From an uncultured virus (IMG/VR IMGVR_UViG_3300031787_000058) (Duplodnaviria; Heunggongvirae; Uroviricota; Caudoviricetes): DNA of 64,000 nt. The position numbers and the translations under genes were made by a program. The stretch lies in the IMG/VR virus record IMGVR_UViG_3300031787_000058, one strand, 5' to 3'. Below the pieces are notes generated by a model. It searched no databases. It was given only the letters and a program-made list of their open reading frames with translations, and was not told where the DNA came from. Positions 41,025-63,709 of this stretch are shown piece by piece; positions within the stretch are counted from its first letter, which is position 1, and every line of letters starts with the position of its first letter.

Positions 41025-41447
41025 GTGATCCTGCCGCGACTGATCCGCTTCCGGGACGCGCCCGCGTACCTGGGGATGGATCGCAACCGCTTCAACGCCG
41101 AGGTCAGGCCGCTCGTCCGAGAAGTCCCCATGGGCGTGCAGGGCGTGGCCTTCGATCGCCTTGACCTTGACGCTTGGGCCGACGAATATGTGAACCGGAA
41201 TGGTCGTGCCCCGATCCAGTTTCGCCGCGGTCTCCGCGCAGAATCAGTCCGTTGCCGAATCCCTGCGTGCGCTTTTGGCGCAGGCAGAGCAGAAGTGGCT
41301 GGCGTGTATTGGCGGGGTTTACGCGGACGTAGACCCTCTGCTCACGACGGCTCTCGTCCTTTGATCCGCGCCTCGATGTCGTTGGCGTACGACGACACGC
41401 GCTTGCCGTTGCCGTCTCGGAAGTCACGCTTCCACGGCTCGCCTTGA
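41025..41447 (+). CDS. Excisionase-like DNA-binding protein with a probably non-native C-terminal extension
   Basis: PR.IR.RDAP.YLGM....F..EVRP...G..GV.FDRLDLDAW; tail overlaps the 3' end of the giant gene. Confidence 0.65.
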   Translation: MILPRLIRFRDAPAYLGMDRNRFNAEVRPLVREVPMGVQGVAFDRLDLDAWADEYVNRNGRAPIQFRRGLRAESVRCRIPACAFGAGRAEVAGVYWRGLRGRRPSAHDGSRPLIRASMSLAYDDTRLPLPSRKSRFHGSP

Positions 41448-44400
41448 CCGCGGTTCACGTTGCCCTCGCCCGAGAAGTAGCCGACCGCGATCTTTGCCGG
41501 GTCGTTGCCGAATTTGTCGGCGAGGTCTTTGATGTACCGCGCTCCCACCCGGATGTTGTCGGCCGGGTTGTCGATCCGCTCACCCGGCTTGGCATACGCC
41601 CGGAACGTGCTCGGGATCAGCTGCATACTGCCCTGCGCGCCGTCGGTGCTCGTCCGGGTGTCGCGCCCGCCGCTCGACTCCTGGTCGCGGATCGCCTTGA
41701 TGACCGGGAGTAGGTGCGCCGCGCCTTCCTCGGCCACCAATTGGGCCAGCGCCGTGCCCAGACCCGCCTCGGTCGGCGGCTTCCGGCCAGCGGGCACGCT
41801 GTCGAGGCCCGCGGAGGGGCGCACGGAGGGCCGCGCAGGGGCGTTCTGGGTCGTGGGGGCGGCCTTAGCAGGGGCCGCTTCCTCGAGGCCCTGACGAACG
41901 CGCTCGCGCATCTCCCGGGGCGCCTGCTTGATCATGCGGCCGTCGCGCTCGGCGGCCATGCCACGGGCCCGATCCCGGATCTGGTTCGGGGTAATGACGA
42001 TCGGGGTGTCCGTGTTCTTGGCGTTCCACGAGTCGAGTTTTGCAGACGCCTCGGCGATCGCCGCCTGGTCGCCGTCCAGCACGCCGCGGGCCCACTTGTC
42101 CACGATGCTCGACTCGACGCGCTTCTGTAGAGCGATGTCCTGGTAGACCGGGCCGACCTTGCGCTGCTGGCGGGCGACGGCAGTCGGCTGGAATCCGATC
42201 GCCTTCGAGGCGACATCCAACCCATCCACATCCGTGATCTTGCGGCCGCGGGTGTCGGTGGCGTATCCCTTGGCGCCCCACTCGGCGGCCGTGGCGATGT
42301 CCTTGGCGAACTTGGGCAGCGCGTTTTGCACCGCCTTGCCACCCTTGCCCTCGAACCCTGCATCGATGGCGTCCGCGATCTGGGTCGCGGCGCCCGCGCT
42401 CGGTCCAAGGATCTCCGCGAACTCGCGGGTGCGCATGTTTTCGTTCGACGGCTTGAGCAAACCGGTGCCCGGGATGAGGTTGCCGAGCCCAAGGCGCCCG
42501 TGCCAGTCCATCGGAAGCATCGAGGACAGCCCGTAGAGCATGAAGTCGCCGAGCTGCTCGCCGAAGATCTCGTAGGCCGCCCGGCGCTTGGCTCGAACCA
42601 TGTTGGTGTCGAAGCCGAGCATCTGGCCAAGCGTGTCGATGAGGTCGTTGAGATCCTGCGCGAACGGCAGGCCCTCTTCGCCAGCGAGCAACATCAAGAT
42701 TCCGAGCATGAAGAGAGCCGCGCGCTTACCTTCCGGCCCGCCCTTCTTCACCATGCGGGCGAACATCTCCATGTACATGATGGAGAACTGCTTGAAGGTC
42801 AGGATCACGCGACCAGCCGGGTTGCGCGCCCAGTTCGGGCGGTTGGCCTTGCTGTAGATACCCTGCGTCTCGTTGACCGCGCGCACCGCGAAGGCGTACG
42901 GGTTCTGGCCGCCGCTTTCGCGGGCGATCTCGTAGGCTGCGACGAAGGCAACCTTGCGGTTGAACTTCTCGGCCAGCGAGAACATGGACCCGAGCAGGGT
43001 CAGAAAGCCGTTCATCCTCACGCGAGCCTGCTCGCCCGCGCCGACAATGTTTCCGAGCCTGGTAGCGACACCCTGCGCACCGACGCTGTACAGGTGGAAG
43101 ATCTCCTGCGCGTCCACGATGCCTTCCTGGCTCGCGCGCTTGAGGGCCGCGCGAAGGTCGGGGTCCGGCTCACGCTTGCCGAGCGAAACGGACATAGCCT
43201 TCGAGAAAGCCTTGGCGGCATCGCTACCGGAGGCGAACTGCGACAGGTACGGAACCGTTGTGGTGACGGTCTGGGTCGTGTTGACCGCGGCCGCCGCGAC
43301 CGAGCCCGTGAGGAACCAGGTGAACATCAGCGACGAGATTTCGGCGCCACCGTCCGACGGGTTCATGACGAACTGCTTGAGCTTGATCGCCTCGTCGCGC
43401 ACGTCGCCCTTCTCCTTCTTGGAGATGCGGGAGATCGCGCGATCCAGTTCCTTCATGAAGTAACGCTGCGAGGCGTAGCGGGCGTTCGAGGTGATGAAGT
43501 TGGACAGCACGCGCGGCAGTTCCCGGCTGTATCCCGGGGTGCCCTTGCGCTCGAGGCGGCGCTTGAGGGCCGACCGCTCGCTCATCACGTTCTCGATGTA
43601 GTTCTTCATCGCCGCTTCCTCGCCGATCGTCTCGGCGAAAATGGCGATCGTCTCCGGCGAGATACCGGAGTACATCTCGTGCGACTTCTCAGAGACCGGC
43701 GCGGCCGTGATCTCGATGTCCGACTGGCCCGCATACTGCCGCTCGAGTTCGGCGCGCATGGCCTTGGCCTCGCTCTCCGACTCGTACCGGCCGAAGAACA
43801 GGGTGGAATCGCCGTCGTCGCCACGATCCGGCAGGCCCGTCACCGGGTCGATACGGGTCACGGTCACGGCGAACTTGCCGAAGCGCATCAGCGGCGCGTA
43901 GCCGGCCTCCTTCAGGCGCTTGGCAATGCCAAACACCTTCAGCACCTTCTCGCGGGTGTCCTCGAGGGACTTGATCTCGGCCTTGATCTCTTCCTGCGCC
44001 GCGTCGTTCTGCGCCAGCATCGCTTGGGAGAGCGTCTGGTTCAGCACGCGCAGGCGCCGGTCGATCGCGCCGAAGATGGTCGGCCGTGCCCGGCTCACAT
44101 CGTCAAGAATTTGACGCCTGGCTTCCCGCGGCATCATGTCCTGGGCTACCGCGTACGCCTCGGCGGCCGCGAGCTCGTCGATGCTGGCATCGATCGCCGC
44201 GCGGGCCTGCTGATACAGGGCCCAGGCCGCTTGGCTCGCGCCCTCGCGCGCCATGAACTCGGCCTCTGTCCAAACCGTGCCGTCCATGACGGTATCGCCC
44301 GCCAGGGTGCCGGCGAAGATCGCATCGGCGGCCGCCTTGATGTCGCGCTGCGACTGGCCCGGGCCGAATGCCGTGGCGAATGCGGAGCGCACGTCCTCGG

Positions 44401-47400
44401 CCTTGGGCAGGATGCCAGGCGCCAACTCGGCCGGGCGGATCGAGGTCAGCGACACCGCGTTCAGGATGGCGTTCGTCAGTGCGAACACCTTACCGAAGTC
44501 ACCGTCCTTGAGTGCCTTGTGGTACTGGGTTGCCAGCGACTTGTCGTAGGCGTTGAAGTTCTTGATCGTGCCACGGCGGTTGGCCCAGAACTGAACGATG
44601 TTGTTGCGGACGCGCCGCATGTTCTCGACCGACGTGGGCCGCTCACCGGCCGCGGTTGGTGCGCCCAGGTTGGCGCCCGCGATCTCTTCGCTGATGGCGA
44701 CGCTATCCGGGCCGTTCTGAAGCAGCTGCATACCGGGCACGAACTTGCCGTCGCCCTTGATGACCGCCTTCAGGCCCTTGATGACCGGGGCATCGGAGCG
44801 CAGGCCGAAAGCGCCCTTGGCGCGCTCGATGAACTCCTTGAGCCACTGAATCGCCCGCTTGACCCACGACTGATCGGCCATGAACCGATCGTCCATGATG
44901 CGGGCGCCGTTGACCGCCCAGAACTCCGACGGGCTGTAGAACGCATAGTCGGTGCCGAACTCGAGCACACGATTCTGGAACGCCTTGACGACGCGCTGCT
45001 TGGCCTCGGCATCGCCCATGCTGGCCTTCAGCATGTCGGCCATGGCCTGCTTGCGCTCCGGGCTGGCCGCGCGGAAGGCGGCAAGCCACTGCTTCTCCCA
45101 CTCCTTGCGAATGCCCATCTGAACATCGAGCGGCATCATGCGTTCGGTGTGGTGCAGAATCTCGTGAACGGCGCTGTCGCCCTCGGTCTCGCCCTTGAAC
45201 AGGGTGAAGACCTTTTCCGCGGGGTTGTAGTTGGCCGCGGCAGTCCCGTTCGCGGCGGTTGTGCGGACGCTGATTCCAAGCTGCTCGGCAACGGCCGGGT
45301 TCTGGTCGATCAGCCACTCGGCGAAATCGGCTTCCTTGGCCGGGATCACCCCGTCCGCGACCGCTTTGCGCATCCGGGACTTGATCCAGTCCCCGCCGCG
45401 GCGCCGTGCCGACATCACATCCCGGTAGGCGCGCTCGTCGCGCTGATCGCGCATACTGGCGATCACTTCCTTGACGGCCAACTGGAACTCGGCGTCCGTG
45501 ATCTTGCCTTCGTCGAGACGGGCTTGCGCCTTCTCGAGGCGGCGCAGACCGTCGGCGCGGACCTTGGGTGCAACGTCGGCGAACGCCCCAGCAGGCGAGC
45601 GCGAGACGTTCTCGAGCAGGCTGCGCGACATGTTCTCTACCGGGCCCGTGGCCTTCGGTGCGAGCAGCTTGCGCGCCTGGTCGAGGTAGTTCTGGACCGT
45701 GAGCGTCACGTCATCCTTGGCCAGCACGACATCGAGAACCTTGCGCAGCCTGTCGTTGCTGTCGCCGAACTGGACAGACATCTGGGCGCCGCTCTTGAAG
45801 AAGTCGCCCGTGACCTTGGTGATGTTCTGGTCGAGGAAGTAGTAGCCGCCCGTCTTCTTTGAACTCGGTACCACGATCGAGTAGTAACCGTTGCCCTTGT
45901 TGATGATGCGGAAGTTGCCGTCCGTCGAGGTAATGGCAGCGTTGCGGCCGATCTCGGTGAGGAACCGGATCGCGTTATCGGTCGTGTTAATCCGAACCGG
46001 GGCTTCCTTCTGCTCCTTCTCGAAGTCGAACTGGCGGTTCATCAGCACGCCTTGGCTGGTCGTGCCGTCCTTCTTCGTGTACTGGATGATCTGCCCGCGC
46101 CAGTTGGCGTAGCCGGCCAGGATGTTGCCGGTCACGATCCACCGCTTCTCGCGGCGCGCGGTCGAGCCCTTGTCGAACACGTCGTAGACCGTGCCGTACT
46201 CAGCCTTGCCGGTGTCGGTGTTGAAGTAGTTGATGCGGTTGACGTTCTGCAGCTCGTACGCGCTCCCGATCTGGGAGAAACTCAGCGTCAGCGACTTCGC
46301 ATCGCCGTTGGCGAGCGCAACTTGCATCTTCCAGTTCGACCCCGCGGCCGGGTTCTGGGTGCGGCCCGTGCTCAGGATGTCCGTGATCACGCCATACAGA
46401 AGCACGCCGTCCTTGTTCTTCACCTGGATCGAGTTGCCGATCTGGTAGGTGTCGAGCACGGTCATCGCGTGGTTCAGGATCGCGCCCAGGTTGTCCTTCT
46501 GCTGCTGCCGACGAACCGGGTCGGCCTCGGCGTCCTCGAGGCGCTTGTCGTTGGCGTCGATGAACGCCTGCCCGTCCTTGCGCAGATTGGTGATCTGCGC
46601 GCGGGAGATTTGCGCCGGGAGATTTGCGCCGTCCATGCCGCTGTCCTCGAGGCGCTTCATCACAAGCGCGCGAACTTCCTCGCTCGTGAACGGCTTTACA
46701 GTCCGCTTGACATCGACCTGTTCCATGTTGGCCTCGCGGGCGAACACGGAATTCTCTTCCTTGGCGTCGGTGATCGGCGTGACGGAGAGCGTCTCGGCGT
46801 CGAGATCGACGGCCTTGGCCTCGAGCTTGTTCGTGCCGAGGCTGTTCTCGCGCTCGATCAGGTCGTTGTAGCGGGCGATCAGTTCCTCGTAGATCGCTTC
46901 CTGCTGCTTGATCGGCAGGATCGGGACATAGCCCGTGAACTTGCGGATGTCGTCCTCGTTCGCATCCTCGGCCGGGTCATCGACCAGCGTGACGATCTTG
47001 TTGCCGCCGATCGACAGGTGAATCTCCGGGTTGTCGCGCAGGAATTCCTGCACGACCTGGCCGCCGTAGTCGTTCATGAAGTCCACGACGCCTTCGGCTG
47101 TGACGGCCGACTTGCGGGAGGCCGTGGTGTTGGCGTTGAGGGACGCCATCTTCTTCAGCAGGACCGCGGCCGGACGCTGCTCGGCCGGGATGTCGGCCAT
47201 CATCTGCGAGTACGCTGGCGCGACCACCTGGCCGGTGCGATGCACGCGGCCAAGCATCTGCATGTGCGTGTCGATGTTCTTCTCGGGCTGCACAATGATC
47301 ATGTGCCGCTTGCGCTGATCTTTGACCTTGCTCGAGGCGTGCAGCGACAGGCCCGTGGAGCCCGCCTGGTTCAGGATGAGAACATCGACCGCGCCGTTGT

Positions 47401-50400
47401 TGAACGACCGCACCGCGTTGACGCGCTGCTTGATGTCGCTCGAGCGGCTGGACAGTTTCGGCGTGCCCGACGAGTAGTTCAGGGCGATCGTGCGGCCGGT
47501 GATCTCGTCGGTCTTGTAGCCCGCCTTGCGAAGCTCGGCGTGCATGAAGTCGATCGGCGAGATCGGCGCCGAGCCGAAGCCAGAACCGCGGATCTGCTCC
47601 AGGATGGAGTTATAGCGCGCGGTCAGCGTCGGGCCGAGGTCTTTGTCGGTCAGTCGGTACTTGGTCTTCTGGCCGTTCGGCGCCTTGATCGTTACCATCC
47701 GCTGCTTCTCGAGGTAGCGGATGTAGAGATCGGCGAACGACAGCGACACCGGGTCGCCGACGTTCAGTTCCATCTCTTCGGCGTAGTCCTTCAGGAACGA
47801 GCCCATGGTGTTCGAGACGGTCATCACGACCTTCTCGCCCGCTTTCAGGCGCTCGATGGCGTGGCGCAGAGAGTCCTGCACCTTGAGCGACAAGAGCATC
47901 TGGTCGATCAGGTTGTGCATGATCGAGCCGAAGTTGGCGCCTTGCACGGTGGTCTTTTCACCCGTGACGCCCATCATCTTGCCTTCTTTGTCGAGCTCCT
48001 TCTGCATCGCCTTGACGGCGGCTTCCTTGGAGCGCGAGAAGCCCAGGATCGAGCGCATGGAGTTCGCCATGTTCTCGGCTGTCTCTTTGTCCACGGCCGT
48101 CTCTTGGGTGTCGTAGGACACGCCGGCGAACGTGCGCTCACGGCGGATGTACTGTCCGTCCTGCGTGAGCATCGTCGCCACGATCTGCTGCATCGGCACA
48201 CCGCCGCGCTTGATGGCTTCGGCGAGTTCGCTGATCTTGTTGACCGCCAGTTTCATGTTCGTGCTGGCGTAGAGGTCCATCACGTCCGGGCGCTTGGCGT
48301 AGGTCGCCGACGAGAAGAACGTGCCAAAGGCGTTCGTGACAAGGCTGCGGACAAATGCCGCGCGCCCGGTGGCCAGTGACCCGCCTTCCTTCTGCGCTTC
48401 CCGCTGGCCCTTGGTGCGGGCCTGCGTCTCGCCGGAGCCGCCTGCGTTGTGGCTCTCGTCGAAGATCATGAAGTTGTCGCGGCCGAAGTGCTGCACGAAC
48501 CGCTGCCGCTCGGTCGGCTGCCCCTTGACGGTCTGCAGCTGGCTGTAGGTCGTGAAGATGACCCGGTAATCGCCGAGCGTGTTTGCGGCGATCATGTCCT
48601 TCATCATCTTGGACAACTGCTCGCCACGCTTCGCCGGCTTCAGGTTCAGGTTCGTCTCGGTGATGTCCTCGCCCTTCATGCGGACGATGCTGTACGGAAC
48701 CGTGGCATCGCTGTTGGTCATGAAGATGCGCGGCTTCTCACCGGTCAGGCCGAGTTCCTCGTCCATGCCGATGTCGTCCAGGTCTCGGATCATGTCCGAG
48801 TACAGGTTCGGCTTTTCGGTCACGAAGATCGGGATGCGGCCCTTGCGCAGCGCGTAGCGGATCATGCCGGCAACGACGCGGCCCTTACCGATGCCCGTCT
48901 GGTCGCCGATGATGAAGCCCTTGCCCTGCTCGGCGTTGTAGATGCCGAGTGCCAGAGCGTCGATCTGTTCTGCGGAGAAGTTGGCGCGGGCCGTCTCGAG
49001 ATCCATCTCGAGGGCCTTGGCCACGTACTCGTCGAGGCTGCCGACGTTATCTTCGATGCGCTGCAGTGACTCTTGGATCGAGTCGCGCATCGCGGCCGGC
49101 ACGAGCGTGCCGACGGAAGCCGCTTCAGATCGCGGCGTGTAGGCGACCTGGGAGCCGGTCTCCTGTTCCTGCCCGCGGCGGTCGGTTAATCCAGACTCGA
49201 GGCGCTGACCATCGAGGCCGCCAGATCGACCCACGTCGCCAGATCGGTCTCCTTGATCGCCTGCGCGGCTTCCTCGCTTGGCGTTACCTTCGCCGGAAAC
49301 GGACTGTTGTCCATCGCCAGTGTTAGGTGCGTTCTCAGATTGAGATTGCCCATCACGAGATACTGACCCGCCTCGGCCGGATCGTCCGTTTCCGGTACGC
49401 CCAGAGCCCGACATGCCTCGACCGTCGCCTCCGGGGGTTCCTTGCTGGCCATCTCCGTCACCCGGTCGGCGAGTCTCTCCACCCACTCCCGCTCCGTCAC
49501 GCTGCCCGTCGGCACCTTCGCCGCCAGCAGTTCGATTGGAGCCGAGATTTCCTTCGGCGCCCACGCTACCAATGCCATTCAGCTTCTCCTTCAGTTGCTC
49601 GAACGAGTCGATGATCACCGGAAGATCGGAGGCCGGCAGCGCGCGAGGGGACTCGGTGCCACGGCCACGGATCACGATGACATCGACCGGATAGCTGGCG
49701 CCCTGCTTTGAGTAGAGGCTGCCGGCCACCGTGAAGTGGTCAACGACATTGTATTCGTTGTACAGCTTGAAATAGAACGCCCGCTTGGCAGCGCCGCGGT
49801 AATCCTGGCGCCGGGGCTCGTCCTCTTTGGCCATCGACCCGCCCACGATCAGGACGGCGGTGCCGTCGTCCTTCATGGCTTTCAGGGCATTGAAGGCGAT
49901 CGCGTGATCGATCTCGTTGGTGGTGTAGTCGGGCGTAACCGTGAAACTAATCGTGTTGCCGTCGGCGTCCTTGACCGCGCCGAACGGCGGGTTGGCGATG
50001 ACGGCATCGACGCGGGCGCCGAACTGGGTCGTCGCAGCGTTTTCGGTCGTGACGTTGAAGCCCATCTGCCGCAGCGCAGCAGCGCGGTTGGCGTTGAGCT
50101 CGTTCGCCTGCACCGACGCCGGGTTGGCGCCGATCAGCAGCATCCCATTACCGGCCGTGGGCTCGAGGACGCGGGTCTGGGCCGTGATACCGGCGAGTTC
50201 CGAGGCGAGGAACGCCAGCGGGACCGGGGTCGAGTACGCCTGCTCGCGCACGCTCGTTGACGAACGCACGCCGAGGTTCGGCTGACGGTTGTAGAGTGCA
50301 ACCAACCGGTCGTAGATGTCGGCCGACGACAGTTTCAGGCGTCGTCCAGCGGCGACAATCTCGCGCCCGGCCATGACGACAGCCGCTTCCACGGTCTCGT

Positions 50401-53400
50401 CGGCGAGTTTGGCGGCTTCCGTGCCGGCCTTGATCGGGGTGCCCGTGATCTCGGCGATCTTGGCGCGGGCGTCGTTGATCGTGGCAAAGGACTGGCCACC
50501 GGCCAGCATCACGAACAGTTGCCGCGCAATCTCGTGGCGGCCTTCCGGGTTTTCCAGCGTCGGCGCCGCCTCTTGCGGCTCGGTGTCGAACTCGATCTTG
50601 CCCGCCTGGACGTCGCTGATGAACCGCACGATGTACGGCTTCATGTTCTCGACGGCCACCTGGCCGAACTTGTCGAGGACCATGCGAATGATTGCTCGCA
50701 TGGCTTCCCGGATGTCCTGGCCCGCCTGCACGAAGTTCTTGGCCGCCGCGATGAAGAGCGGCTTCGCCTTGGCGTAGGTCTCCTCGTCGAATGTGAAGCC
50801 GGAGTTCAGCTTGCCGTTGCCGCCGAAGAGTTTACCGAGTCCGTCGATTGCATTACCGAGCCCTTCGGCCGTGTTCTTGCCGGCGCTCTGGATCGAGGTG
50901 AGCGGGCCGCGGTCGGACTGGCCCTGACGCTCGCGCATCTCGCGCTCGGTCTTCGGCTTGTCCTTGGCCAGTTCCTCGCGCATCAGGTCGTCGAACATGT
51001 TGCCGAGGTCGATGTCCGGCTCTGCGGCCGGAGGCTCTTCCTGCGCAGGCGGCTTGGCGTAGATCGTCCCCTCGCCAGGCTGCCAAGAGGCAGAGGCGAC
51101 GGTCATGCCGAATTCCTTGAGCTCTTCGACGGCCAGCGGGAACGGATACCCGACGAGTTTGCCGCTCGCGGATACCGCCGACGGCTGCCCTGGCTGCCCC
51201 TTCGACTTGGACTCGCTCAGTTGGTACCAGTACAGGCCGTCGTTCTTCTTCTCGCCATCGAGGCGCTTCTGGAATGCCTCGCGCACAGCCTGGTCAACTT
51301 CGGTGGCGCGACCCTCGGTCGGCGACACGTAGTCGTCCTTGACCTTCGGGCCCTCGTCCGACCACTCGATGTTCTTGACGAGATCGCGGAACAGGTCGTT
51401 GAACCCGGCGCGCTCTACGCCAGAGGCGTACGGCGTCCCCTTGTATCCGGTGTCCATGCTGGTCGCGCCCTCGCCAACCCAACCGGTGACGAGGTACGGG
51501 CTCTTGCGCGTGCCGAGTTCGTCGAACACAAACGCCTCGAAGGCGCGCGCCCACATCTCGACGGGCGTTCCCCAGTAGTCCTTGCCGAGCCTGTCGGCTT
51601 CGTTCTTGAAGTTCGTGGCGCGGCGGATGTTCCACCCTTCGAGCTTCCAATACTTGTTCTCGACGTAGGCGCGGGCGGTCTCGATCGGGCCGAGGCGCTT
51701 GTTGTTGCGTAGGTGCGATTGACCGGCGAGCAGGCGGTCAAGCGTCTTGACCGCGTAATCGATGTCGTACTTCTCGAGCAGCGCCTTCTTCAGTGAGTTG
51801 ACCGCCTTCTTGCTCGAGGCGCTGGCGGTCGATCCGGCCTTAAAGCCCTGCATCTCACCGGTCAGGAAGTGATCGAGCGCATGACCCCACTCGTGGGCCA
51901 CGGTGCCGTCGCCCTTGGTCTTCGTGAGGTTAATGACGTTGGTGTTGGGCTCGTAGTGCGCCGCCGCACGGCCGCCACGGCCACGGGAACCGAACGCGAG
52001 GCCCATTCGGCCGCCGAACGAGATCGCCTTGGCCGGCATGTTGAGCGCGTCGGCCAGATCCCAAAGCGCGTCGTAGGCGTGGTTGATGTTCGCCTGGCGC
52101 TCGGCCGCGTTCACCCACTCGCCGAACTCGACGCCACGGAAGCCGAACGCCTGCATGAAGTCGTCGCCGTTCACGTCCTTGCCGTTGCGGCGATCGGGCA
52201 GGTTCTCGCGGACGATGTTCTCGAGCGGCGGGCGACGATCGACGCCCTTGGAAATCGACGAGTCTTCCTTCGTGCGGCGGGCATAGTCGTTGAGGTCCGA
52301 GACGATGAGCCGGGCGTACTTGGTGGCGATCTCACCGAACTCGGTCAGGTTGGTCTTGGGCTTGGAGAAGCCTCTGTCGTCGCGCTCGTACTCGATCGTG
52401 CCGATGAGCTTGTCCAGCGCCGCCTTCGCTTCCGCAATGCTCATGGCGTTGCGGGTCGCTTCGCGCATCTGCTCCATCGTGGCGATGTAGTCGGCCGCTT
52501 CCTCGATCAGGAAGTCGATGCCCTCGTCTTTGGCCTTGCGCTTGGTCGCCTCTGAGAAACTTTCCTCGTAGCGGCCGCGCCCACCGCCTGCGTTGGAGCC
52601 GACGTACTCGAGAAGCGACGGAAATCGGTTGCGCACTTCGGTCAGGAAGACGACCGTACCAGTGCTGGCGCCTTCCGGCTGGACAATGTTCCAGACGCGG
52701 GTCTTCGAGGCGCTGTCCAGAACCTTCTGGATGTCTTTGTCGAGATCCCCGGTCTTGCCCTCGCCGAGTCGCTTCTTGGCCAGGTCTTTGCGGCTGCCCC
52801 ACAGCTTCTCGCCGACGTTCTGAAGTTTGTCCTTCTTCTCGTCCTTGGGCGGCAGCGCCTCCCTCTCGCCCGTCAGATACTCACGGGCCATGAGGAACAG
52901 CGTGTTGATCTCATCGAGCGCCTTCGGGACGGCGTTGAAGTTCGCCAGCGCGCGATCGACAACTTCCTTGGCGTTGACGACCGACTGCGCGCTGCCCGCG
53001 GCGTAGAGCTCGGGGTTGAGCTCGACCAGTTTGCGGAACGCTTCCTGGTACATGCCCTCGAGCGCCTTGTTGAACGAGGCGAGGCGCGCGTCGAGGCTCT
53101 TGCCCGACGTGCCCGGGGTGTTGTCCAGGAATTCTTGGAATGCGAAGCGAGCGTTGGTGGTCAGTTCCTTCTTCAGGACATCCGCACCACCGGCCGGGAT
53201 CTTCCAGCCCTTCTGCTTGAAGTTACCGAGCAGGCGCTCGACCCGCTCGTGCAGTTTGGTGACAGCCGCGGCCTTTGCGCCCCACGCCTCGAGGGCCGTG
53301 GGCTCGGCGGCCGGCTGGCTTACTTGCTCTTGGCTGCCTGCTTCGCCTTCATCCGCCTGACTGCCTCGAGCATCGCCGCTTTCACCTTGGGGTTGCTCTC

Positions 53401-56400
53401 GATCCGGCGTACCAGTCTCTCCAGCCCCGTCTGCGGGCGGCTGGTTGCCGGCGCCGAGGAGGTCGCCTTGGGTTTCGCCTTGTCGGTTGGCAGCATCGTT
53501 CTTCCCTCTCAGGTTTCGCAGGGTGTCGAGCTTCGTCGGGAGTTCCATGGCCCCGAACAGGCCGTCTCCCGCGTTCTCGACAGATTGAACTATGGCGGCG
53601 TATTCCTGCAAGTATTCCGTGATCGCTCGCGCGCTACGGATGTTGTCGTTCATGAACTGCAGGATTTCTTTGGCTTCGGCGCTGATGGTGTCGCCGAACA
53701 TGCCAATTTGCGACAGGAAGTCCTCGATGCTGCGCCCCTCGGCGCGCAGTTGAGACAGGGTTTCGACAGCCTCGGTGATGTCCTGGCTGATGTCGTACCC
53801 ATCAACGGTGCGGGCCTGCGCCAGTTGCGCGGCCGCGCGCACAAGCGACGTGCCGACGTTCTTCAGGTCGGCGTTGGGCGACTCGATCAACCGGGCCAGC
53901 GTCTCGCTCTTGCCGTACGCTTTGTACAGGATGGCATTGCGGATGCGGCGCTTGCCGGATTGGGCGATCGTGCCGTCTGCGGCCACGAACCCGGCGAGTT
54001 CGTTCGTCGTGTAGCCCTTCAGCGCGCCCTTGATCGCCTGAATGTTGTTGGCCGTCATCGGGATGTCGCCCGAGTCGTCCACCTGGATTTGGTCGAGCGC
54101 GGTCATGCGCTCGGCATCGACCGCCGCCTGCTCCATGTCGGACATCTGCAGGCCGGCCGCTTGGTTCGACTGGATCGCCAGGCGCCGGGTGTCGGCGTCC
54201 TGCGTCACGCGGCGCACCAGTACCGGCTTCTTCATGCCGCGGATCGCGCCCGGATCGAGACCGAAGCGCGCGGCGTTCGCCTCGAGCTGCTTGCGGTACT
54301 CGCCGGCCATGTTGTTCTCGTAGGCGAGGCTCACGCCCTCGAAGCGGCCGTTGCCGCCCACGATCACACCGTCCGATGTGAGCGTCGGCGAACCGTAGTC
54401 CATCGTCTTCGACGTGTCGGACAGGCGCTCGAAGTCCGGGTTACGCGAGATCTCGGCCACCTGAATGTTCGAGGCGGCGCGCGTGCGATCGCGCGGCTGG
54501 TTGACGCCTTCCTTCATCGAGGCTTTCACCTCGTCGGCATCGACCACCGCCCATTCGGCGTCGAGCTTCTCGTTGCCCGCAATGACGGTCGTCTTGCGGC
54601 GCTGGTCGAGCATCTCGCGCTCGTTGCGCGGCGGCTCGGCGGGCGTCTCGTCGGGCGCCTGTCCCGTTGCCGCCCCGGCCTGCTCACCGCCGAACAGCGC
54701 GCCGAGCCCGTCGATCGGGTCTTGTGCCTGCCCTACTTCTGCCGCTGGCGATCCCGGTTCTTGTCCTTGCGGCGCTGCTTGCTCGGCTTCAGGGGCTTGT
54801 GTGCCATCGACGGGTTCCTCTGCAGTTGGGGGATTCTGTTGCGCGCCGAACAACTGGCGCAGCTTGGTCAGGTCGCCGTTGGCATCCTGCAGCGCGGCGA
54901 CTTCTTGCCGTTCGCGTTCGGTCAGCGGGGTCGGCGGGAACTCCTGCTCGATCTCGCCCTGATCGGTGAAGATGGTGCGGAAGCCGCCCTCGGCCTTCGA
55001 GACCAACTGCTCGAGGCGCGTCTCCGCGTAATCGAGTAGCGCCTGGTCGTCCTCCGAGACGGGCTCTGCGGCCGCGGGAGGCGGCGTATCAGCGGGCGGC
55101 GGCGTTGGCGCTGCCTCGGCCTGCGGAGGCTCTGCGGGCGGCTCTACGCCCGGGATGGGGCCGATCGTGGGCTCTATGCGCTCCTGATTCGGTGCGTTCG
55201 GCGGCGCGACGGGCGCCTGCGGTCCCCCGCCCAACACCAGGTTGACGCCACCGCCCATGATGCCGCCCAAGGTGCCGGCAAATGCCGTCCGTTTGGCAGC
55301 GTTGGGGGCAGACGGGAGCTCGCGCCGGCCGACGGCCTCGCCCGCGATGTTGCCGGCCTCTTCGCCCGCTTCCTGCGCGCCTTCCCTGAAGACGGCAGAC
55401 AGGAAACTCTTGACGCGCTCGAGCCCGATCCGGCCTGCGGACAGGTCGCCAGCCAAACGGCGCGCGATCTCGCCTTCGGCGCCGCCGCCCGTGGCGATAC
55501 TGGCCAGCACCGATACCGCCGCCGACGTGGCGGCTGCTTGGTACCGGTTGGCAAGCGGTTGGTCCTCGAGGGACGTGAACGTGTCGGCCGCATTCTGGGC
55601 CGCGATCGTCGCCACGCTCGTCGCCACCGCGGCCTTGGTCGTGGCCGCTTGGCCGAGCCCGCGCGCGCTGGCCACCATGGCCGCGCCCTTCGCGGCGCCT
55701 GCCGGGAGGAACATCGAACCGATAGTGGTAATCGACTGATCGACGAGAACCGACGGGTTGTCGAGCAGGTACGAGAACATGTCGCCGACACCCTTGGTGT
55801 CGTCCTGCAGAACTTTGGCGAAGCCGCGCTGCTGTTCGTTGAACTGCTTGGTTCCAACCAGTTCGTCGATCGACTCCATGCCGCGCTTCATAGCGTCGGA
55901 GGTGTCTTTGCCGACATTACCGCCCGTGGCCATCTGCGCGATGTCGGCGACGCCCTTGACCGCGGTCGGGCCGATCTTGAGCGCGCTGGCCGTGAGGTTG
56001 CGGGCAGTCCCGGTAATCGGGTTCTGCTCTTCGACTGGCGTACCAACTTCCGGCAGCTTGAGACCGGATCGCTGGTTCATCTCGCGCGCGATGGATGCCA
56101 TGGCGCGCTTCTCGAGCGGCGCGGACATACCAGGGTCCGTGCTCATCTCGATCTTGATGTCGTTCGGCGCAGCACGGTACTGCGCCTCGAGCACCTTGCG
56201 CATTGCGGACGGGATCTGTTCGTTGGGCAGATAGCCCGTGCCGGGCTCGATCAGATTGGCGATCCCGCCAACCACGGAGTCGAGCGCGCGTTGGAACATG
56301 CCCGGCTCTTCTGACTTCTGGGCGGGCGCAGCGGCCGGCTTCGGAGGCGCCAAGAATCGATCGCGGAGGCTAGCGGCGTCCGAGCCCGCGTTCGGCGCGA

Positions 56401-56704
56401 CCCAGTAATCGAAGTAGCGCGCCTTGGCGCCTGCTTTTTCTTCGGGCGAGAGCGCCTGGTACTCCGGCTTGGCTTCAATGTCGGCCCACTTCGGGGCCTT
56501 GCCGAGATCCGGTGTGGTCGGTGCAGTGCTCGCGCGCGGGGGCGCCTTCGGCGGCTCGGCCTTGGGAGGCGTCGGGGCGCTGTTGAATGCGCCGTAGAGA
56601 TCTTCGTTGAGGGTATCGAGCCCAGTGCTCGGCGGTTTGGGGTCGCCTCGAGAACCTGTGCTTGGTGAATCAAAAAGCCCGAGTAGGTTCTCGTTGATGT
56701 CCAT
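41342..56704 (-). CDS. 5120-aa large polyvalent / DarB-like internal virion (ejection) protein
   Basis: N to C: ddrB-ParB-like (QPRDR, GNGR), LPD5/LPD1-like (GEKL.G.RKD, FRGVEFG, AHEW.HALD, EM.ARAFE), N6-MTase (EPTAGNG, NPPF), Strawberry-notch SF2 helicase (GDQTG.GKGR, DESH, SATY), HEILH zincin, PLxRFG (PLMRFG), lytic transglycosylase (QES.G, G.MQ). Confidence 0.92.
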   Translation of the reverse strand: MDINENLLGLFDSPSTGSRGDPKPPSTGLDTLNEDLYGAFNSAPTPPKAEPPKAPPRASTAPTTPDLGKAPKWADIEAKPEYQALSPEEKAGAKARYFDYWVAPNAGSDAASLRDRFLAPPKPAAAPAQKSEEPGMFQRALDSVVGGIANLIEPGTGYLPNEQIPSAMRKVLEAQYRAAPNDIKIEMSTDPGMSAPLEKRAMASIAREMNQRSGLKLPEVGTPVEEQNPITGTARNLTASALKIGPTAVKGVADIAQMATGGNVGKDTSDAMKRGMESIDELVGTKQFNEQQRGFAKVLQDDTKGVGDMFSYLLDNPSVLVDQSITTIGSMFLPAGAAKGAAMVASARGLGQAATTKAAVATSVATIAAQNAADTFTSLEDQPLANRYQAAATSAAVSVLASIATGGGAEGEIARRLAGDLSAGRIGLERVKSFLSAVFREGAQEAGEEAGNIAGEAVGRRELPSAPNAAKRTAFAGTLGGIMGGGVNLVLGGGPQAPVAPPNAPNQERIEPTIGPIPGVEPPAEPPQAEAAPTPPPADTPPPAAAEPVSEDDQALLDYAETRLEQLVSKAEGGFRTIFTDQGEIEQEFPPTPLTERERQEVAALQDANGDLTKLRQLFGAQQNPPTAEEPVDGTQAPEAEQAAPQGQEPGSPAAEVGQAQDPIDGLGALFGGEQAGAATGQAPDETPAEPPRNEREMLDQRRKTTVIAGNEKLDAEWAVVDADEVKASMKEGVNQPRDRTRAASNIQVAEISRNPDFERLSDTSKTMDYGSPTLTSDGVIVGGNGRFEGVSLAYENNMAGEYRKQLEANAARFGLDPGAIRGMKKPVLVRRVTQDADTRRLAIQSNQAAGLQMSDMEQAAVDAERMTALDQIQVDDSGDIPMTANNIQAIKGALKGYTTNELAGFVAADGTIAQSGKRRIRNAILYKAYGKSETLARLIESPNADLKNVGTSLVRAAAQLAQARTVDGYDISQDITEAVETLSQLRAEGRSIEDFLSQIGMFGDTISAEAKEILQFMNDNIRSARAITEYLQEYAAIVQSVENAGDGLFGAMELPTKLDTLRNLRGKNDAANRQGETQGDLLGAGNQPPADGAGETGTPDREQPQGESGDARGSQADEGEAGSQEQVSQPAAEPTALEAWGAKAAAVTKLHERVERLLGNFKQKGWKIPAGGADVLKKELTTNARFAFQEFLDNTPGTSGKSLDARLASFNKALEGMYQEAFRKLVELNPELYAAGSAQSVVNAKEVVDRALANFNAVPKALDEINTLFLMAREYLTGEREALPPKDEKKDKLQNVGEKLWGSRKDLAKKRLGEGKTGDLDKDIQKVLDSASKTRVWNIVQPEGASTGTVVFLTEVRNRFPSLLEYVGSNAGGGRGRYEESFSEATKRKAKDEGIDFLIEEAADYIATMEQMREATRNAMSIAEAKAALDKLIGTIEYERDDRGFSKPKTNLTEFGEIATKYARLIVSDLNDYARRTKEDSSISKGVDRRPPLENIVRENLPDRRNGKDVNGDDFMQAFGFRGVEFGEWVNAAERQANINHAYDALWDLADALNMPAKAISFGGRMGLAFGSRGRGGRAAAHYEPNTNVINLTKTKGDGTVAHEWGHALDHFLTGEMQGFKAGSTASASSKKAVNSLKKALLEKYDIDYAVKTLDRLLAGQSHLRNNKRLGPIETARAYVENKYWKLEGWNIRRATNFKNEADRLGKDYWGTPVEMWARAFEAFVFDELGTRKSPYLVTGWVGEGATSMDTGYKGTPYASGVERAGFNDLFRDLVKNIEWSDEGPKVKDDYVSPTEGRATEVDQAVREAFQKRLDGEKKNDGLYWYQLSESKSKGQPGQPSAVSASGKLVGYPFPLAVEELKEFGMTVASASWQPGEGTIYAKPPAQEEPPAAEPDIDLGNMFDDLMREELAKDKPKTEREMRERQGQSDRGPLTSIQSAGKNTAEGLGNAIDGLGKLFGGNGKLNSGFTFDEETYAKAKPLFIAAAKNFVQAGQDIREAMRAIIRMVLDKFGQVAVENMKPYIVRFISDVQAGKIEFDTEPQEAAPTLENPEGRHEIARQLFVMLAGGQSFATINDARAKIAEITGTPIKAGTEAAKLADETVEAAVVMAGREIVAAGRRLKLSSADIYDRLVALYNRQPNLGVRSSTSVREQAYSTPVPLAFLASELAGITAQTRVLEPTAGNGMLLIGANPASVQANELNANRAAALRQMGFNVTTENAATTQFGARVDAVIANPPFGAVKDADGNTISFTVTPDYTTNEIDHAIAFNALKAMKDDGTAVLIVGGSMAKEDEPRRQDYRGAAKRAFYFKLYNEYNVVDHFTVAGSLYSKQGASYPVDVIVIRGRGTESPRALPASDLPVIIDSFEQLKEKLNGIGSVGAEGNLGSNRTAGGEGADGQRDGAGVGGETRRPGDGDGQQGTPGGDGRGMSGSGRTGNGRSGRGGSVSRDGQSQSENAPNTGDGQQSVSGEGNAKRGSRAGDQGDRSGDVGRSGGLDGQRLESGLTDRRGQEQETGSQVAYTPRSEAASVGTLVPAAMRDSIQESLQRIEDNVGSLDEYVAKALEMDLETARANFSAEQIDALALGIYNAEQGKGFIIGDQTGIGKGRVVAGMIRYALRKGRIPIFVTEKPNLYSDMIRDLDDIGMDEELGLTGEKPRIFMTNSDATVPYSIVRMKGEDITETNLNLKPAKRGEQLSKMMKDMIAANTLGDYRVIFTTYSQLQTVKGQPTERQRFVQHFGRDNFMIFDESHNAGGSGETQARTKGQREAQKEGGSLATGRAAFVRSLVTNAFGTFFSSATYAKRPDVMDLYASTNMKLAVNKISELAEAIKRGGVPMQQIVATMLTQDGQYIRRERTFAGVSYDTQETAVDKETAENMANSMRSILGFSRSKEAAVKAMQKELDKEGKMMGVTGEKTTVQGANFGSIMHNLIDQMLLSLKVQDSLRHAIERLKAGEKVVMTVSNTMGSFLKDYAEEMELNVGDPVSLSFADLYIRYLEKQRMVTIKAPNGQKTKYRLTDKDLGPTLTARYNSILEQIRGSGFGSAPISPIDFMHAELRKAGYKTDEITGRTIALNYSSGTPKLSSRSSDIKQRVNAVRSFNNGAVDVLILNQAGSTGLSLHASSKVKDQRKRHMIIVQPEKNIDTHMQMLGRVHRTGQVVAPAYSQMMADIPAEQRPAAVLLKKMASLNANTTASRKSAVTAEGVVDFMNDYGGQVVQEFLRDNPEIHLSIGGNKIVTLVDDPAEDANEDDIRKFTGYVPILPIKQQEAIYEELIARYNDLIERENSLGTNKLEAKAVDLDAETLSVTPITDAKEENSVFAREANMEQVDVKRTVKPFTSEEVRALVMKRLEDSGMDGANLPAQISRAQITNLRKDGQAFIDANDKRLEDAEADPVRRQQQKDNLGAILNHAMTVLDTYQIGNSIQVKNKDGVLLYGVITDILSTGRTQNPAAGSNWKMQVALANGDAKSLTLSFSQIGSAYELQNVNRINYFNTDTGKAEYGTVYDVFDKGSTARREKRWIVTGNILAGYANWRGQIIQYTKKDGTTSQGVLMNRQFDFEKEQKEAPVRINTTDNAIRFLTEIGRNAAITSTDGNFRIINKGNGYYSIVVPSSKKTGGYYFLDQNITKVTGDFFKSGAQMSVQFGDSNDRLRKVLDVVLAKDDVTLTVQNYLDQARKLLAPKATGPVENMSRSLLENVSRSPAGAFADVAPKVRADGLRRLEKAQARLDEGKITDAEFQLAVKEVIASMRDQRDERAYRDVMSARRRGGDWIKSRMRKAVADGVIPAKEADFAEWLIDQNPAVAEQLGISVRTTAANGTAAANYNPAEKVFTLFKGETEGDSAVHEILHHTERMMPLDVQMGIRKEWEKQWLAAFRAASPERKQAMADMLKASMGDAEAKQRVVKAFQNRVLEFGTDYAFYSPSEFWAVNGARIMDDRFMADQSWVKRAIQWLKEFIERAKGAFGLRSDAPVIKGLKAVIKGDGKFVPGMQLLQNGPDSVAISEEIAGANLGAPTAAGERPTSVENMRRVRNNIVQFWANRRGTIKNFNAYDKSLATQYHKALKDGDFGKVFALTNAILNAVSLTSIRPAELAPGILPKAEDVRSAFATAFGPGQSQRDIKAAADAIFAGTLAGDTVMDGTVWTEAEFMAREGASQAAWALYQQARAAIDASIDELAAAEAYAVAQDMMPREARRQILDDVSRARPTIFGAIDRRLRVLNQTLSQAMLAQNDAAQEEIKAEIKSLEDTREKVLKVFGIAKRLKEAGYAPLMRFGKFAVTVTRIDPVTGLPDRGDDGDSTLFFGRYESESEAKAMRAELERQYAGQSDIEITAAPVSEKSHEMYSGISPETIAIFAETIGEEAAMKNYIENVMSERSALKRRLERKGTPGYSRELPRVLSNFITSNARYASQRYFMKELDRAISRISKKEKGDVRDEAIKLKQFVMNPSDGGAEISSLMFTWFLTGSVAAAAVNTTQTVTTTVPYLSQFASGSDAAKAFSKAMSVSLGKREPDPDLRAALKRASQEGIVDAQEIFHLYSVGAQGVATRLGNIVGAGEQARVRMNGFLTLLGSMFSLAEKFNRKVAFVAAYEIARESGGQNPYAFAVRAVNETQGIYSKANRPNWARNPAGRVILTFKQFSIMYMEMFARMVKKGGPEGKRAALFMLGILMLLAGEEGLPFAQDLNDLIDTLGQMLGFDTNMVRAKRRAAYEIFGEQLGDFMLYGLSSMLPMDWHGRLGLGNLIPGTGLLKPSNENMRTREFAEILGPSAGAATQIADAIDAGFEGKGGKAVQNALPKFAKDIATAAEWGAKGYATDTRGRKITDVDGLDVASKAIGFQPTAVARQQRKVGPVYQDIALQKRVESSIVDKWARGVLDGDQAAIAEASAKLDSWNAKNTDTPIVITPNQIRDRARGMAAERDGRMIKQAPREMRERVRQGLEEAAPAKAAPTTQNAPARPSVRPSAGLDSVPAGRKPPTEAGLGTALAQLVAEEGAAHLLPVIKAIRDQESSGGRDTRTSTDGAQGSMQLIPSTFRAYAKPGERIDNPADNIRVGARYIKDLADKFGNDPAKIAVGYFSGEGNVNRGQGEPWKRDFRDGNGKRVSSYANDIEARIKGREPS
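49186..49578 (-). CDS. Nested +1-frame gene inside the giant gene (130 aa)
   Basis: AAGGAG 7 nt before ATG; 39 of the first 46 codons end in G/C; host frame here is G/R/S junk using CGA, GGA, ACT, TTA. Confidence 0.7.
   Translation of the reverse strand: MALVAWAPKEISAPIELLAAKVPTGSVTEREWVERLADRVTEMASKEPPEATVEACRALGVPETDDPAEAGQYLVMGNLNLRTHLTLAMDNSPFPAKVTPSEEAAQAIKETDLATWVDLAASMVSASSLD
53320..53496 (-). CDS. Nested +1-frame gene inside the giant gene (58 aa)
   Basis: GAGAGGGAAG before ATG; 50 of 58 codons end in G/C; MLPTDKAKPK...GLERLVRRIESNPKVKAAMLEAVRRMKAKQAAKSK. Confidence 0.55.
   Translation of the reverse strand: MLPTDKAKPKATSSAPATSRPQTGLERLVRRIESNPKVKAAMLEAVRRMKAKQAAKSK
54733..54807 (-). 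CDS. Nested +1-frame basic peptide inside the giant gene (24 aa)
   Basis: GAGGA 8 nt before ATG; MAHKPLKPSKQRRKDKNRDRQRQK; 22 of 24 codons end in G/C. Confidence 0.4.
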   Translation of the reverse strand: MAHKPLKPSKQRRKDKNRDRQRQK

Positions 56705-61757: not shown

Positions 61758-63709
61758 CAGAGCGTCGCCAGTTCTCGCGCGGTCTGGGCGACGCGCAACT
61801 CACGAAAGCGCCCCGTGCCGCTGATCTTGATGCGATACCGGTCGGACTCGTACCCCGACGGAAGGCGGAAGGTCGAGATGCCTTGCGGGATGGACTGCGT
61901 GTGCCGCAGCGAGTACGTGCCGTTGACGAGCGCCCAGAGCTCGAGCGTCCAGGTGCCCTGCGTAACAGCCTGGCCAATTCCAAAGTTCAGCGGGCGATCG
62001 AGCACGATCTCGCGCGACTGCCAGACGGCGCTTTGATCTGTTCCACCGTTGAACTGGTACAGCATGGCCCCTGTGGCGTAGTACATCTGGTCGGCCATCG
62101 GGCTCACGAACGATGTCTGCGCCACGAAAGACGGCAGATCGGTCATTGCGCCCTCGGCTTCATCCAGCCGGATCATGGCCGGCGTGAAGGCGTTGCTGCT
62201 CGAGAAGATGACGAGGCGCCCGTCCCACACCGCAAGCCGCATTGAGGACAGGCCGGCGCCGAATCGTGCGCGCCAGACTTCGCGCGTGAAGAACTTGCTG
62301 CTGGCATCGAGCGAGGCCCGGCCGCCCACGAGTTCAACGAGCCCGTCGTTGCTGGCGTAGACGACCGATCCGTTGGCGACCGCGATCGACCACTTCGAGA
62401 CGCCCGCCTGATCGACGTTGAGCCTCTGGGTGGTCATGGAGTCCGAGGTAACGCCAGACACCAGGTAGGGGCTGGTCGTCGTCGTGACGACAGCGCCCGA
62501 GCCATAGGAGATGCCGCCTACTATGGAGTTCGGCAGCACCTTCACATAGGACGGCGGCCACGACCAGGGCTTGTACGCTTCGGAGAAGTGCAACTCGTTG
62601 CCCTTGTACGCGCACAAGATTCCGTTCGGCAGCGCCATCAGGCCGCGCAGGGCCGTGTTCGGCGCATACGCCTCCGTCGAGGACAGTTCCTCGTTCAGGA
62701 GTTCCGGGCGAACGTCGTCGAGGAAATTGTAGTTACCGGCAGGCTGGCCCTGCACGGCGATCGACCCGGCGTAGTAGTACGTGGCGTTGTCTGATCCCGT
62801 GGGGGTGCGGTAGATGCGAATTTCCTTGATCGGCGCGTACGACCCGTCTGCGATCTTGTTCGTCGTGACCGTGACGTTGACACCGGTTCCGGTGCTGATC
62901 GCCGCCACGGGGCTTGGCGGCCCTTCCTCGTTGTAGGTGTTGACGTAGGTGTACACGTACACCCGCGCCTCCTTCTCCTTCTCCGGGATGGTTCCGGTGA
63001 GCTTGATCGTGTAGGTCGCCTGCCCGGAGTCGTCGGCCATCGACAGGCTGTAATAGCCGGCTGTGCTCGTGAACGACGAGTTGTTGGTGTAGATGTCGAA
63101 GATCTGCGAGTTGTCAACAAGCCAGTTGGCGACCAGGCGCACGACCGGGAAGGCGCCCTCCGGGGTATCGACCGCCTTGGCTACCGGGGTGAAGCTGTAC
63201 TGATCATTGCCGAGCGAGGTCGGCGTGATGGTCGCCTCTTGGTACTTCACGCCGCCGTACTCGTAGTGGAAGGTCCACACGAGCGTTGCGGTCGTTGCGT
63301 TTACGGGCTTGATCCCAGACACAACAAGCGTCGGGGCGGCCGTTGGCCGCTGCACCCCGACCTGATACGAAGATGCGGGCACGCCGCCCGTGAGCTGCTG
63401 GCCAAGCCGGTTGGTGACGAAAAGGCCGCCAGTCGTCGAGAAGTAGAGCCGGTTAAACGTGTCGCTGACGAGCGGCGATCGGACGGCATCGGTATCGGTC
63501 GGCCAGGTGTAGAACACCGCGCCGTCGTCGGTGTAGATCGAGGCCGGGGTGTTCTGCATAGTGCCGAACAGGAACCCGCCTTTGGTGTTGCGCAACTCGC
63601 CATAGGCGAAGTCGCAGTTCTGCGCGATGGTGGCCGTGCCTTCTGGGAGCAACGACTCCGGGAGCCTCGGCACAATTCCCTTGAAGATCTCTGCCTTGAA
63701 CCCGGCCAT
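61757..63709 (-). CDS. Podovirus tail hub / stabilisation protein
   Basis: F.GI.PR...LL..A.NC; YVYTYV..EEGPPSP; SEAYKPWSWP; homologous to 5203..6921. Confidence 0.8.
   Translation of the reverse strand: MAGFKAEIFKGIVPRLPESLLPEGTATIAQNCDFAYGELRNTKGGFLFGTMQNTPASIYTDDGAVFYTWPTDTDAVRSPLVSDTFNRLYFSTTGGLFVTNRLGQQLTGGVPASSYQVGVQRPTAAPTLVVSGIKPVNATTATLVWTFHYEYGGVKYQEATITPTSLGNDQYSFTPVAKAVDTPEGAFPVVRLVANWLVDNSQIFDIYTNNSSFTSTAGYYSLSMADDSGQATYTIKLTGTIPEKEKEARVYVYTYVNTYNEEGPPSPVAAISTGTGVNVTVTTNKIADGSYAPIKEIRIYRTPTGSDNATYYYAGSIAVQGQPAGNYNFLDDVRPELLNEELSSTEAYAPNTALRGLMALPNGILCAYKGNELHFSEAYKPWSWPPSYVKVLPNSIVGGISYGSGAVVTTTTSPYLVSGVTSDSMTTQRLNVDQAGVSKWSIAVANGSVVYASNDGLVELVGGRASLDASSKFFTREVWRARFGAGLSSMRLAVWDGRLVIFSSSNAFTPAMIRLDEAEGAMTDLPSFVAQTSFVSPMADQMYYATGAMLYQFNGGTDQSAVWQSREIVLDRPLNFGIGQAVTQGTWTLELWALVNGTYSLRHTQSIPQGISTFRLPSGYESDRYRIKISGTGRFRELRVAQTARELATL

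Follow-up and report, generated by a model that had tools for sequence, protein, structure and literature searches.

The window analyzed here, a stretch of 64,000 nucleotides (nt) from an uncultured member of the Caudoviricetes (IMG/VR record IMGVR_UViG_3300031787_000058), carries a gene hidden within another gene. The outer gene is an open reading frame (ORF) of 5120 amino acids (aa) encoding a phage polyvalent protein. The inner one is a 130-codon ORF that lies in the linker between the adenine methyltransferase (MTase) region and the helicase of the host ORF, occupying host residues 2376 to 2506 in the +1 frame. Both frames are open over this stretch, which therefore holds a complete ORF inside another, on the same strand and in a shifted frame. 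Comparison with related sequences confirmed that the 130-codon ORF is a real gene, selected in its own frame and not in that of the host ORF. The coordinates of the features are collected in Table 1.

The start of the nested ORF is marked by a Shine-Dalgarno (SD) sequence, AAGGAG, which is separated from the ATG by a spacer of 7 nt (AAGCTGA). The final three bases of the spacer form an in-frame TGA, indicating that the nested ORF starts exactly at that ATG. At the other end, the nested TAA overlies the sole TTA codon of the host ORF (TTA, 1; CTG, 165; CTC, 152). A first-pass annotation made from the sequence alone had described the same 130-aa product, with AAGGAG 7 nt ahead of its ATG, a rare leucine TTA codon forced on the host frame by the nested TAA, and a host frame resembling filler. 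All of these points were borne out, the last by a host-frame composition of 42 Gly, 15 Ser, and 14 Arg in about 131 linker residues. Across the linker, codon usage favors the +1 frame in a run of six windows, and GC content at third codon positions is 0.77 in the nested frame, compared with 0.49 for the host frame in the linker and 0.85 for the host ORF overall. No match to a sigma-70 promoter was found between positions 48500 and 51000. Contigs from four of seven listed RNA-library runs (depth about 2 to 4) each cover part of the nested gene and are silent on strand, frame, and transcription.

An open +1 frame is by itself no evidence of a gene. When the host protein and host codon usage were held fixed, the +1 frame was open by chance in 43% of 10,000 randomizations, so that openness proves little and is compatible with a chance open frame in a GC-rich linker. 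We compared the window with 10 related loci; L016 and L017 (short spurious matches), L011 (rearranged start), L001 (identical to the window), and L013 (the same as L005) were left out. Across these 11 sequences (55 pairs), the median ratio of nonsynonymous to synonymous substitution rates was 0.43 for the nested frame, as against 1.61 for the host frame. Identity in the linker was 61% in the nested frame versus 45% in the host frame, with flanks at about 80%, and differences at nested codon positions 1, 2, and 3 were 0.28, 0.25, and 0.42. In the flanks, the host frame is under normal selection, and the +1 frame has about 3.4 stops per 100 codons. Purifying selection in the nested frame next to a relaxed host frame, the conservation of SD, start, stop, and length, the confident predicted fold described below, and the persistence of free-standing homologues in which the host frame has been lost all count against a chance frame. 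As judged from these comparative data, that reading is already refuted, and we give it practically no credence.

Homologues of the product are numerous. One search returned 27 homologous sequences among 87 candidates, 25 of which cover at least 90% of the query at lengths of 128 to 141 aa, and a further search returned 81 homologous cluster representatives. Relatives that keep the linker were checked for +1-frame stops, and none were seen. Together with the confident fold, the many homologues bear out the earlier view that the nested ORF is genuine and encodes a globular, acidic product.

To establish how widely the gene is distributed, we scanned for loci related to the MTase, taking the best 80 of 223 viral loci and 79 genome loci (159 in all). 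MTase and helicase lie in one ORF at 145 of these; at 13, no helicase was present within the fetched DNA, and at 1 the helicase is in another ORF. The 145 one-ORF loci represent 131 distinct fusions, one of them the window phage. Counting +1 ORFs of at least 80 aa whose start falls within -45 to +60 nt of the MTase end, we found an ATG-initiated ORF in 128 of the 131 fusions and none in the +2 frame, compared with 49 of 2930 control windows in flanking domains. Two of the three exceptions start with GTG behind AAGGAG, giving a +1 gene in 130 of 131; the sole fusion without one (L170) has a linker of 52 aa. A strict SD precedes 97 of the 128 nested ATGs, versus 1 of the 2930 control windows. 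Iterated profiles unite 105 of the 128 as one family with no reversed decoy passing, and the remaining 23 may be remote relatives or replacements. The nested proteins of these loci form 115 clusters at 90% identity. An independent scan seeded with the helicase yielded 15 loci. Apart from one that is identical to the window, every locus (14 of 14) has an ATG +1 ORF, which ends 59 to 77 nt ahead of the seed, and 11 of the 14 match the first profile.

The nested gene is not confined to virion-type proteins. At three cyanobacterial loci, the ORF begins at the MTase and lacks the virion-type N-terminal part, and the nested gene is kept, its products matching the family at E values of 1e-9 to 4e-14. 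One of these loci adjoins a type IA topoisomerase gene and its host ORF ends in MutS_I, a setting that looks plasmid-like or like an integrative and conjugative element. Retention in non-virion MTase-helicases suggests that the gene travels with the enzyme and does not serve capsid packaging. In the cultured gut phage BS-TP4, an unannotated 119-aa +1 ORF (PQ571277.1, positions 10032 to 10391) lies at the same place in the giant gene, although its homology was not significant (hhalign probability, 5.8%; ranked 5th among itself and 500 shuffles).

The AlphaFold2 model of the product, built from 28 alignment rows, consists of an N-terminal strand region followed by six helices and has a predicted local distance difference test score (pLDDT) of 94.4 and a predicted template modeling score of 0.89. 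Foldseek gave nothing significant against the PDB (best E value, 0.87) or BFVD (best E value, 1.8). The best of 48,161 chains in VIA-align reached a Z score of 3.1 (root mean square deviation [rmsd], 3.6; 75 residues aligned), with several weak winged-helix rows at Z scores of 2.3 to 3.1. A missing fold match does not prove that the fold is new. Matches were likewise absent from Pfam, PHROGs (0 of 57 members), NCBIfam (0 of 82), and PADLOC, and the ESM Atlas gave no usable match for the nested protein. Searched by tblastn, neither 50,697 phage records nor 72,556 plasmids contained a match to the 130-aa sequence, and a pattern scan of GTDB genomes (A2) yielded 0 of 98 stretches. A search for longer forms (A5) yielded 0 of 7,996 scored, which is weak evidence, as the other homologue search did return longer forms. 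The protein family thus is absent from the libraries searched and is without a fold match.

Over 82 alignment rows, M1 and P95 alone reach 90% conservation, and the conserved columns are chiefly Trp, Leu, and Pro, with R39 and N78 in addition. This pattern includes no conserved catalytic set and points to a binding module and not an enzyme, so that the nested product is probably noncatalytic.

The database matches also contained 28 copies of the domain in 27 fusion proteins. The fusion partner parts fall into 13 clusters, one of which is a tandem duplication. The idea that the partners arose by +1-frame read-through of upstream MTase DNA was rejected, since none of the 27 partner parts matches MTase-coding DNA. 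On a tree computed from 134 columns for 43 nested and 28 fused domains, with many forks unresolved, the label switches between nested and fused 10 times, at least 4 of these switches being forced by well-supported branches, and the nearest rows to the window protein are two fusions. By this reconstruction, the domain has left the nested setting several times and has been fused to about a dozen unrelated partners. Searched against the ESM Atlas, a fusion partner matched only unnamed clusters at 0.77 to 0.80. We also noted a single record (P0050) in which the MTase C terminus continues in frame into the nested domain; either a frameshift introduced by sequencing or a natural fusion could account for it.

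DNA context was at hand for four escaped loci (L014, L015, L194, and L199). L194, from Piscinibacter, is a T5orf172/GIY-YIG fusion. In L194 and L199, the -1 frame is stop free across the domain (chance, 0.046 and 0.0005, respectively) and runs a few codons into the phage helicase-start motif GERxxxxL(S/T)(D/E)R. These open relics of the host frame indicate that both copies were cut from nested genes. L014 has 7 stops in the -1 frame and an intact protein; the loss of the relic with the protein preserved indicates that the domain is kept for its own sake. L015 is free-standing and carries a frameshift. The element represented by L199 and L201 encodes an integrase, AlpA, and a Toprim primase and sits at tRNA-Pro, and its copy of the domain occupies a cargo slot adjoining a LEM-3 GIY-YIG gene and an SNF2 helicase. 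A weak AlpA match lies near L194 (E value, 0.005), and L014 and L015 sit among small accessory genes. A role for the nested start as a satellite integration site in the style of HE-PICI was considered and rejected, as no helicase follows the captured piece at any of the four loci.

In one escaped clade, whose members are about 330 aa long, the C-terminal domain resembles YbjN and type III secretion system chaperones (model pLDDT, 78). It matched 8q8o in Foldseek (E value, 3.9e-4) and AmyR in VIA-align (Z score, 10.1; rmsd, 3.2; 122 residues aligned). A scan of 401 genomes of one order gave three matches, two escaped and one nested. A small Cys-rich domain (CxxxW...RxCxxC) with no Pfam match was seen beside or fused to escaped copies (L014, positions 1155 to 1559; L015, positions 1946 to 2323; and P0091).

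What the product does can only be proposed. We tentatively favor, at somewhat less than even confidence, the notion that it is a dedicated noncatalytic partner of the MTase-helicase, most likely a brake in the producing cell, that satellites have reused against phages. Internal initiation at the AAGGAG/ATG of the shared mRNA would yield partner and enzyme together, and domain shuffling would pass the two on as a unit. Bound to the MTase-helicase, the partner would restrain it where it is made, and it would be left there or diluted out once the giant protein enters a new cell along with the DNA. There, the freed enzyme could methylate or translocate on the incoming DNA, as is proposed for DarB-type dyads (PMC5512222). 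Satellites and islands that capture the gene could express the brake in advance and so jam or detect the enzyme of an incoming or helper phage. Restraint is ranked above a chaperone or cofactor, a passenger, and a mimic because capture by elements that lack the enzyme fits blocking or detecting, and because the acidity is moderate and does not keep to fixed positions.

The first-pass annotation had proposed a regulator, DNA mimic, or inhibitor of the flanking MTase/helicase. The putative functional tie is supported by near-universal co-occurrence; regulator or inhibitor stays our best guess, and the mimic finds little support. A mimic would be a DNA-like or anti-restriction protein directed at host enzymes and merely coexpressed with the giant gene. 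Such a role would suit the net acidity of 124 of 128 nested products, the 21 Asp plus Glu (16%) against 10 Lys plus Arg in the 130 aa of the window protein, and a host gene of the anti-restriction kind (PMC5512222). However, the acidity is moderate (family median of 15% Asp plus Glu; acidic residues make up half or more of only 3 alignment columns), and the predicted structure is compact. Strict placement in one linker also would be left unexplained. The fold searches, which gave no significant match, do not bear on this choice, as a mimic family may be missing from the listed matches. The known mimics Ocr and ArdA are elongated and far more acidic. We regard a mimic as quite improbable. Similarly unlikely in our view is a passenger, that is, an independent small gene (e.g., for superinfection exclusion of related phages) that occupies the sole tolerant stretch with no physical tie to the flanking domains. 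Unrelated +1 ORFs do occur in other linkers, as described below, as if linkers were general parking places, and escaped copies persist without the enzyme among small accessory genes. The nested ORFs of other linkers, in contrast, occur patchily and belong to many clusters, whereas the gene in this linker is kept in 130 of 131 fusions, in many phyla, and in nonphage elements.

A partner with a positive role, namely, a chaperone, assembly factor, or codelivered subunit that the MTase-helicase needs, as Ulx may be for DarB of phage P1, is possible though not likely. It draws on the same co-occurrence data (130 of 131 and 14 of 14) and on the clade fused to the YbjN/type III secretion system chaperone fold. 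P1 has no nested ORF but carries ulx (146 aa) directly after darB, and Ulx is listed as "Aids DarB localization" (PMC9024508). However, a profile comparison found no homology of the nested product to Ulx (hhalign probability, 0.2%; E value, 0.33), retention in stand-alone, non-virion MTase-helicases argues against a role in capsid packaging, and a positive partner would give elements with no enzyme nearby less reason for repeated capture.

Several observations weigh against a brake. Nothing separates a brake from an activator or a chaperone, all of which the data fit alike, and the clade fused to the chaperone-like domain fits a chaperone as well. The nested start stays anchored to the MTase end (standard deviation, 9.8 nt over 128 loci) even though the gap from the nested stop to the helicase exceeds 100 nt in 18 of the 128, sometimes with a whole extra domain inserted. 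This speaks for a partner of the enzyme, but the anchoring is in part mechanical, the SD being encoded within the last helix of the MTase. Distance correlation leans slightly to the helicase (partial r, 0.52 versus 0.36 for the MTase), so that either domain may be the partner, and mutual-information coevolution returned only artifacts of invariant columns and no usable contacts. Complex predictions for the nested protein with the MTase (320 aa) or the first helicase lobe (385 aa), using 82-row alignments, scored 0.00 in two runs with the controls unfolded and are uninformative either way. In the Acinetobacter MTase-helicase record L034, the linker is acidic and lacks a nested ORF, and in P1 darB no nested ORF passes the scan; with L170, these suggest that the enzyme need not always have such a gene there. 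Finally, a satellite setting is clear at one of the four escaped loci, partial at a second, and not seen in two short contigs, and DNA context was available for only a minority of the fusion proteins.

If a brake is nevertheless correct, the giant MTase-helicases of phages and plasmids would carry their own inhibitor gene in the linker, forming a self-contained enzyme-plus-brake cassette with a new fold. The hidden gene would have been excised repeatedly by satellites and host islands and fused to nucleases, membrane anchors, and chaperone domains as a blocker or sensor of injected anti-restriction enzymes, which would amount to an undescribed class of anti-phage defense that arose from an overprinted gene. 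We consider this wider picture doubtful.

The host ORF gave Pfam matches to ddrB-ParB, LPD1, AAA_34, Helicase_C_4, and SLT. The two helicase matches agree with the Strawberry-notch assignment made in the first-pass annotation, and its term "DarB-like" applies only loosely, given that helicase type and the absence by scan of a nested ORF from P1 darB. The Pfam match to N6_Mtase (E value, 0.001) falls slightly short of the cutoff; NPPF is invariant in 82 rows, and YSTP is conserved. General Pfam scans, which used no dedicated LPD36 profile, gave no LPD36 match ahead of the MTase. The strand of the host ORF also carries genes for terminase, portal, tail, and internal virion proteins, and the record is a viral contig of 81,303 bases.

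Table 1. Features of the host ORF and its nested gene (window positions)
Feature	Position	Strand	Remarks
Nested gene	49186..49578	minus	Encodes 130 aa in the +1 frame of the host ORF; fold predicted as small alpha/beta plus helical
Shine-Dalgarno sequence AAGGAG	49586..49591	minus	Written in K-E codons of the last MTase helix (LKEKL)
Host ORF, phage polyvalent protein	41342..56704	minus	5120 aa; ddrB-ParB, LPD1, N6-MTase, Strawberry-notch helicase, SLT lytic transglycosylase
Adenine MTase region	49580..50539	minus	QAYSTP, EPTAGNG, and NPPF motifs; Pfam, PHROG, and PADLOC MTase matches
Host-frame linker	49187..49579	minus	Gly/Ser/Arg/Asp rich; shifted reading of the nested gene
AAA_34, first lobe of Strawberry-notch-type SWI2/SNF2 helicase	48077..48931	minus	PF13872, E value 2.8e-24
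Helicase_C_4, second helicase lobe	46829..47506	minus	PF13871, E value 2e-27
Second candidate nested +1 ORF	53320..53496	minus	58 aa, Lys/Arg rich; codon score 0.35; purine-rich upstream motif; linker after the ParB region

The second candidate nested ORF has no Pfam match and is separate from the main finding. Host-frame codon usage also falls near positions 54844 to 54700. Genes for phrog_511 internal virion proteins lie at positions 5203 to 6921 and 61757 to 63709, each followed by a tail-like gene; this pair at both ends of the window is either a duplicated module or an assembly overlap.

Linkers and neighboring domains vary among the related loci. The linker of L034 is Asp/Glu rich and in frame, and might do the job of the nested protein in cis, while that of L170 is short and Lys rich. 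At L189, a helical domain and then a stop come after the MTase and nested gene, and the retrieved DNA contains no helicase. L131 has a comparable helical domain separating its nested gene from its helicase, and the window has one ahead of the MTase.

Other giant phage genes also appear to hide ORFs. Upstream of the MTase, 32 further SD-bearing +1 candidates were found in 31 of 137 related host ORFs (L001 to L193), and none were found in the +2 frame. They are mostly 40 to 90 aa, basic, and patchy, fall into many small clusters, and would form a second, basic class of hidden genes. Within the 5391-aa gene of BS-TP4 (gp3; L033, positions 6504 to 6668) is a further 54-aa +1 ORF with a protein-like codon score. 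The DarB-like gene of Burkholderia phage Bcep22 (gp75; L197; AY349011.3) contains two unannotated +1 ORFs with strong SDs, at positions 17338 to 17658 and 15559 to 15720. The 107-aa nested ORF of Bcep22 lies directly upstream of the MTase and has a weak match to TnpV (E value, 0.045), short of the cutoff; the window protein has no Pfam match to TnpV (PF14198) and no similarity to this Bcep22 ORF.

The literature searched holds no description of a gene nested in an MTase-helicase linker, most subscription papers and supplements lying outside the search. In the text of PMC5512222 that was covered, "overlap" does not occur and "nested" occurs twice, with reference to a hairpin in the passage shown; its supplements, where small neighboring genes could be listed, fall outside that count. 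The consulted part of PMC12694917, which describes the isolation of BS-TP4, does not mention nested genes. The findings presented here add a widespread protein family with no library or fold match. They also indicate that "low-complexity linkers" of polyvalent proteins can be the shadows of real genes dropped by annotation, as in BS-TP4 and Bcep22, and they offer a handle on the open question of how DarB-type MTase-helicases are controlled ahead of delivery. In the escaped copies, the departure of a gene from an overlap and its reuse, possibly in the conflict between phages and satellites, can still be read, which is rare.

The host protein resembles the MTase-helicase dyads of polyvalent proteins, whose archetype is P1 DarB and which include a Strawberry-notch variant, a minor class in Iyer et al. 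2017 (PMC5512222). The likeness to P1 DarB lies in a TP and NPPF adenine MTase fused to an SWI2/SNF2-type helicase, and the likeness to polyvalent dyads in the ddrB-ParB, LPD1, and SLT domains and the virion gene cluster around the host ORF. Unlike P1 DarB, the window protein has a Strawberry-notch helicase; by the scan used here, darB of P1 contains no nested ORF, and the helper Ulx is encoded separately and is unrelated. Satellites of phages are described as holding anti-phage hotspots (PMC9122126) and as capturing helper late genes (PMC10111431). One escaped copy lies in such a cargo slot, of the kind that holds defense and helper-derived genes. It differs from known captures in that the captured gene had been hidden inside another, was cut nearly exactly at its own ends, and joined varied partners, with no PADLOC match.

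Embedded genes themselves have precedents, which this one extends. The spanin gene Rz1 lies inside Rz, as discussed in a source that also covers Bcep22-like DarB (PMC9144972), and Rz1 is annotated inside Rz in Bcep22. As in Rz1/Rz, a whole same-strand, out-of-frame gene lies inside another phage gene. Rz1 is a lipoprotein of about 54 to 73 aa in a small lysis gene, whereas the protein described here is a predicted soluble one of 130 aa, of no known family, in an interdomain linker of a 5120-aa enzyme. Two further small out-of-frame genes in long multidomain coding sequences, each with a function of its own, are comS within the srfA operon of Bacillus subtilis and GndA within gnd of Escherichia coli (PMC11230408). 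In contrast to these short microproteins of chromosomal genes, the nested product is predicted to be globular, is conserved across many host phyla, and dictates the host-frame sequence along the full length of the linker in which it lies.

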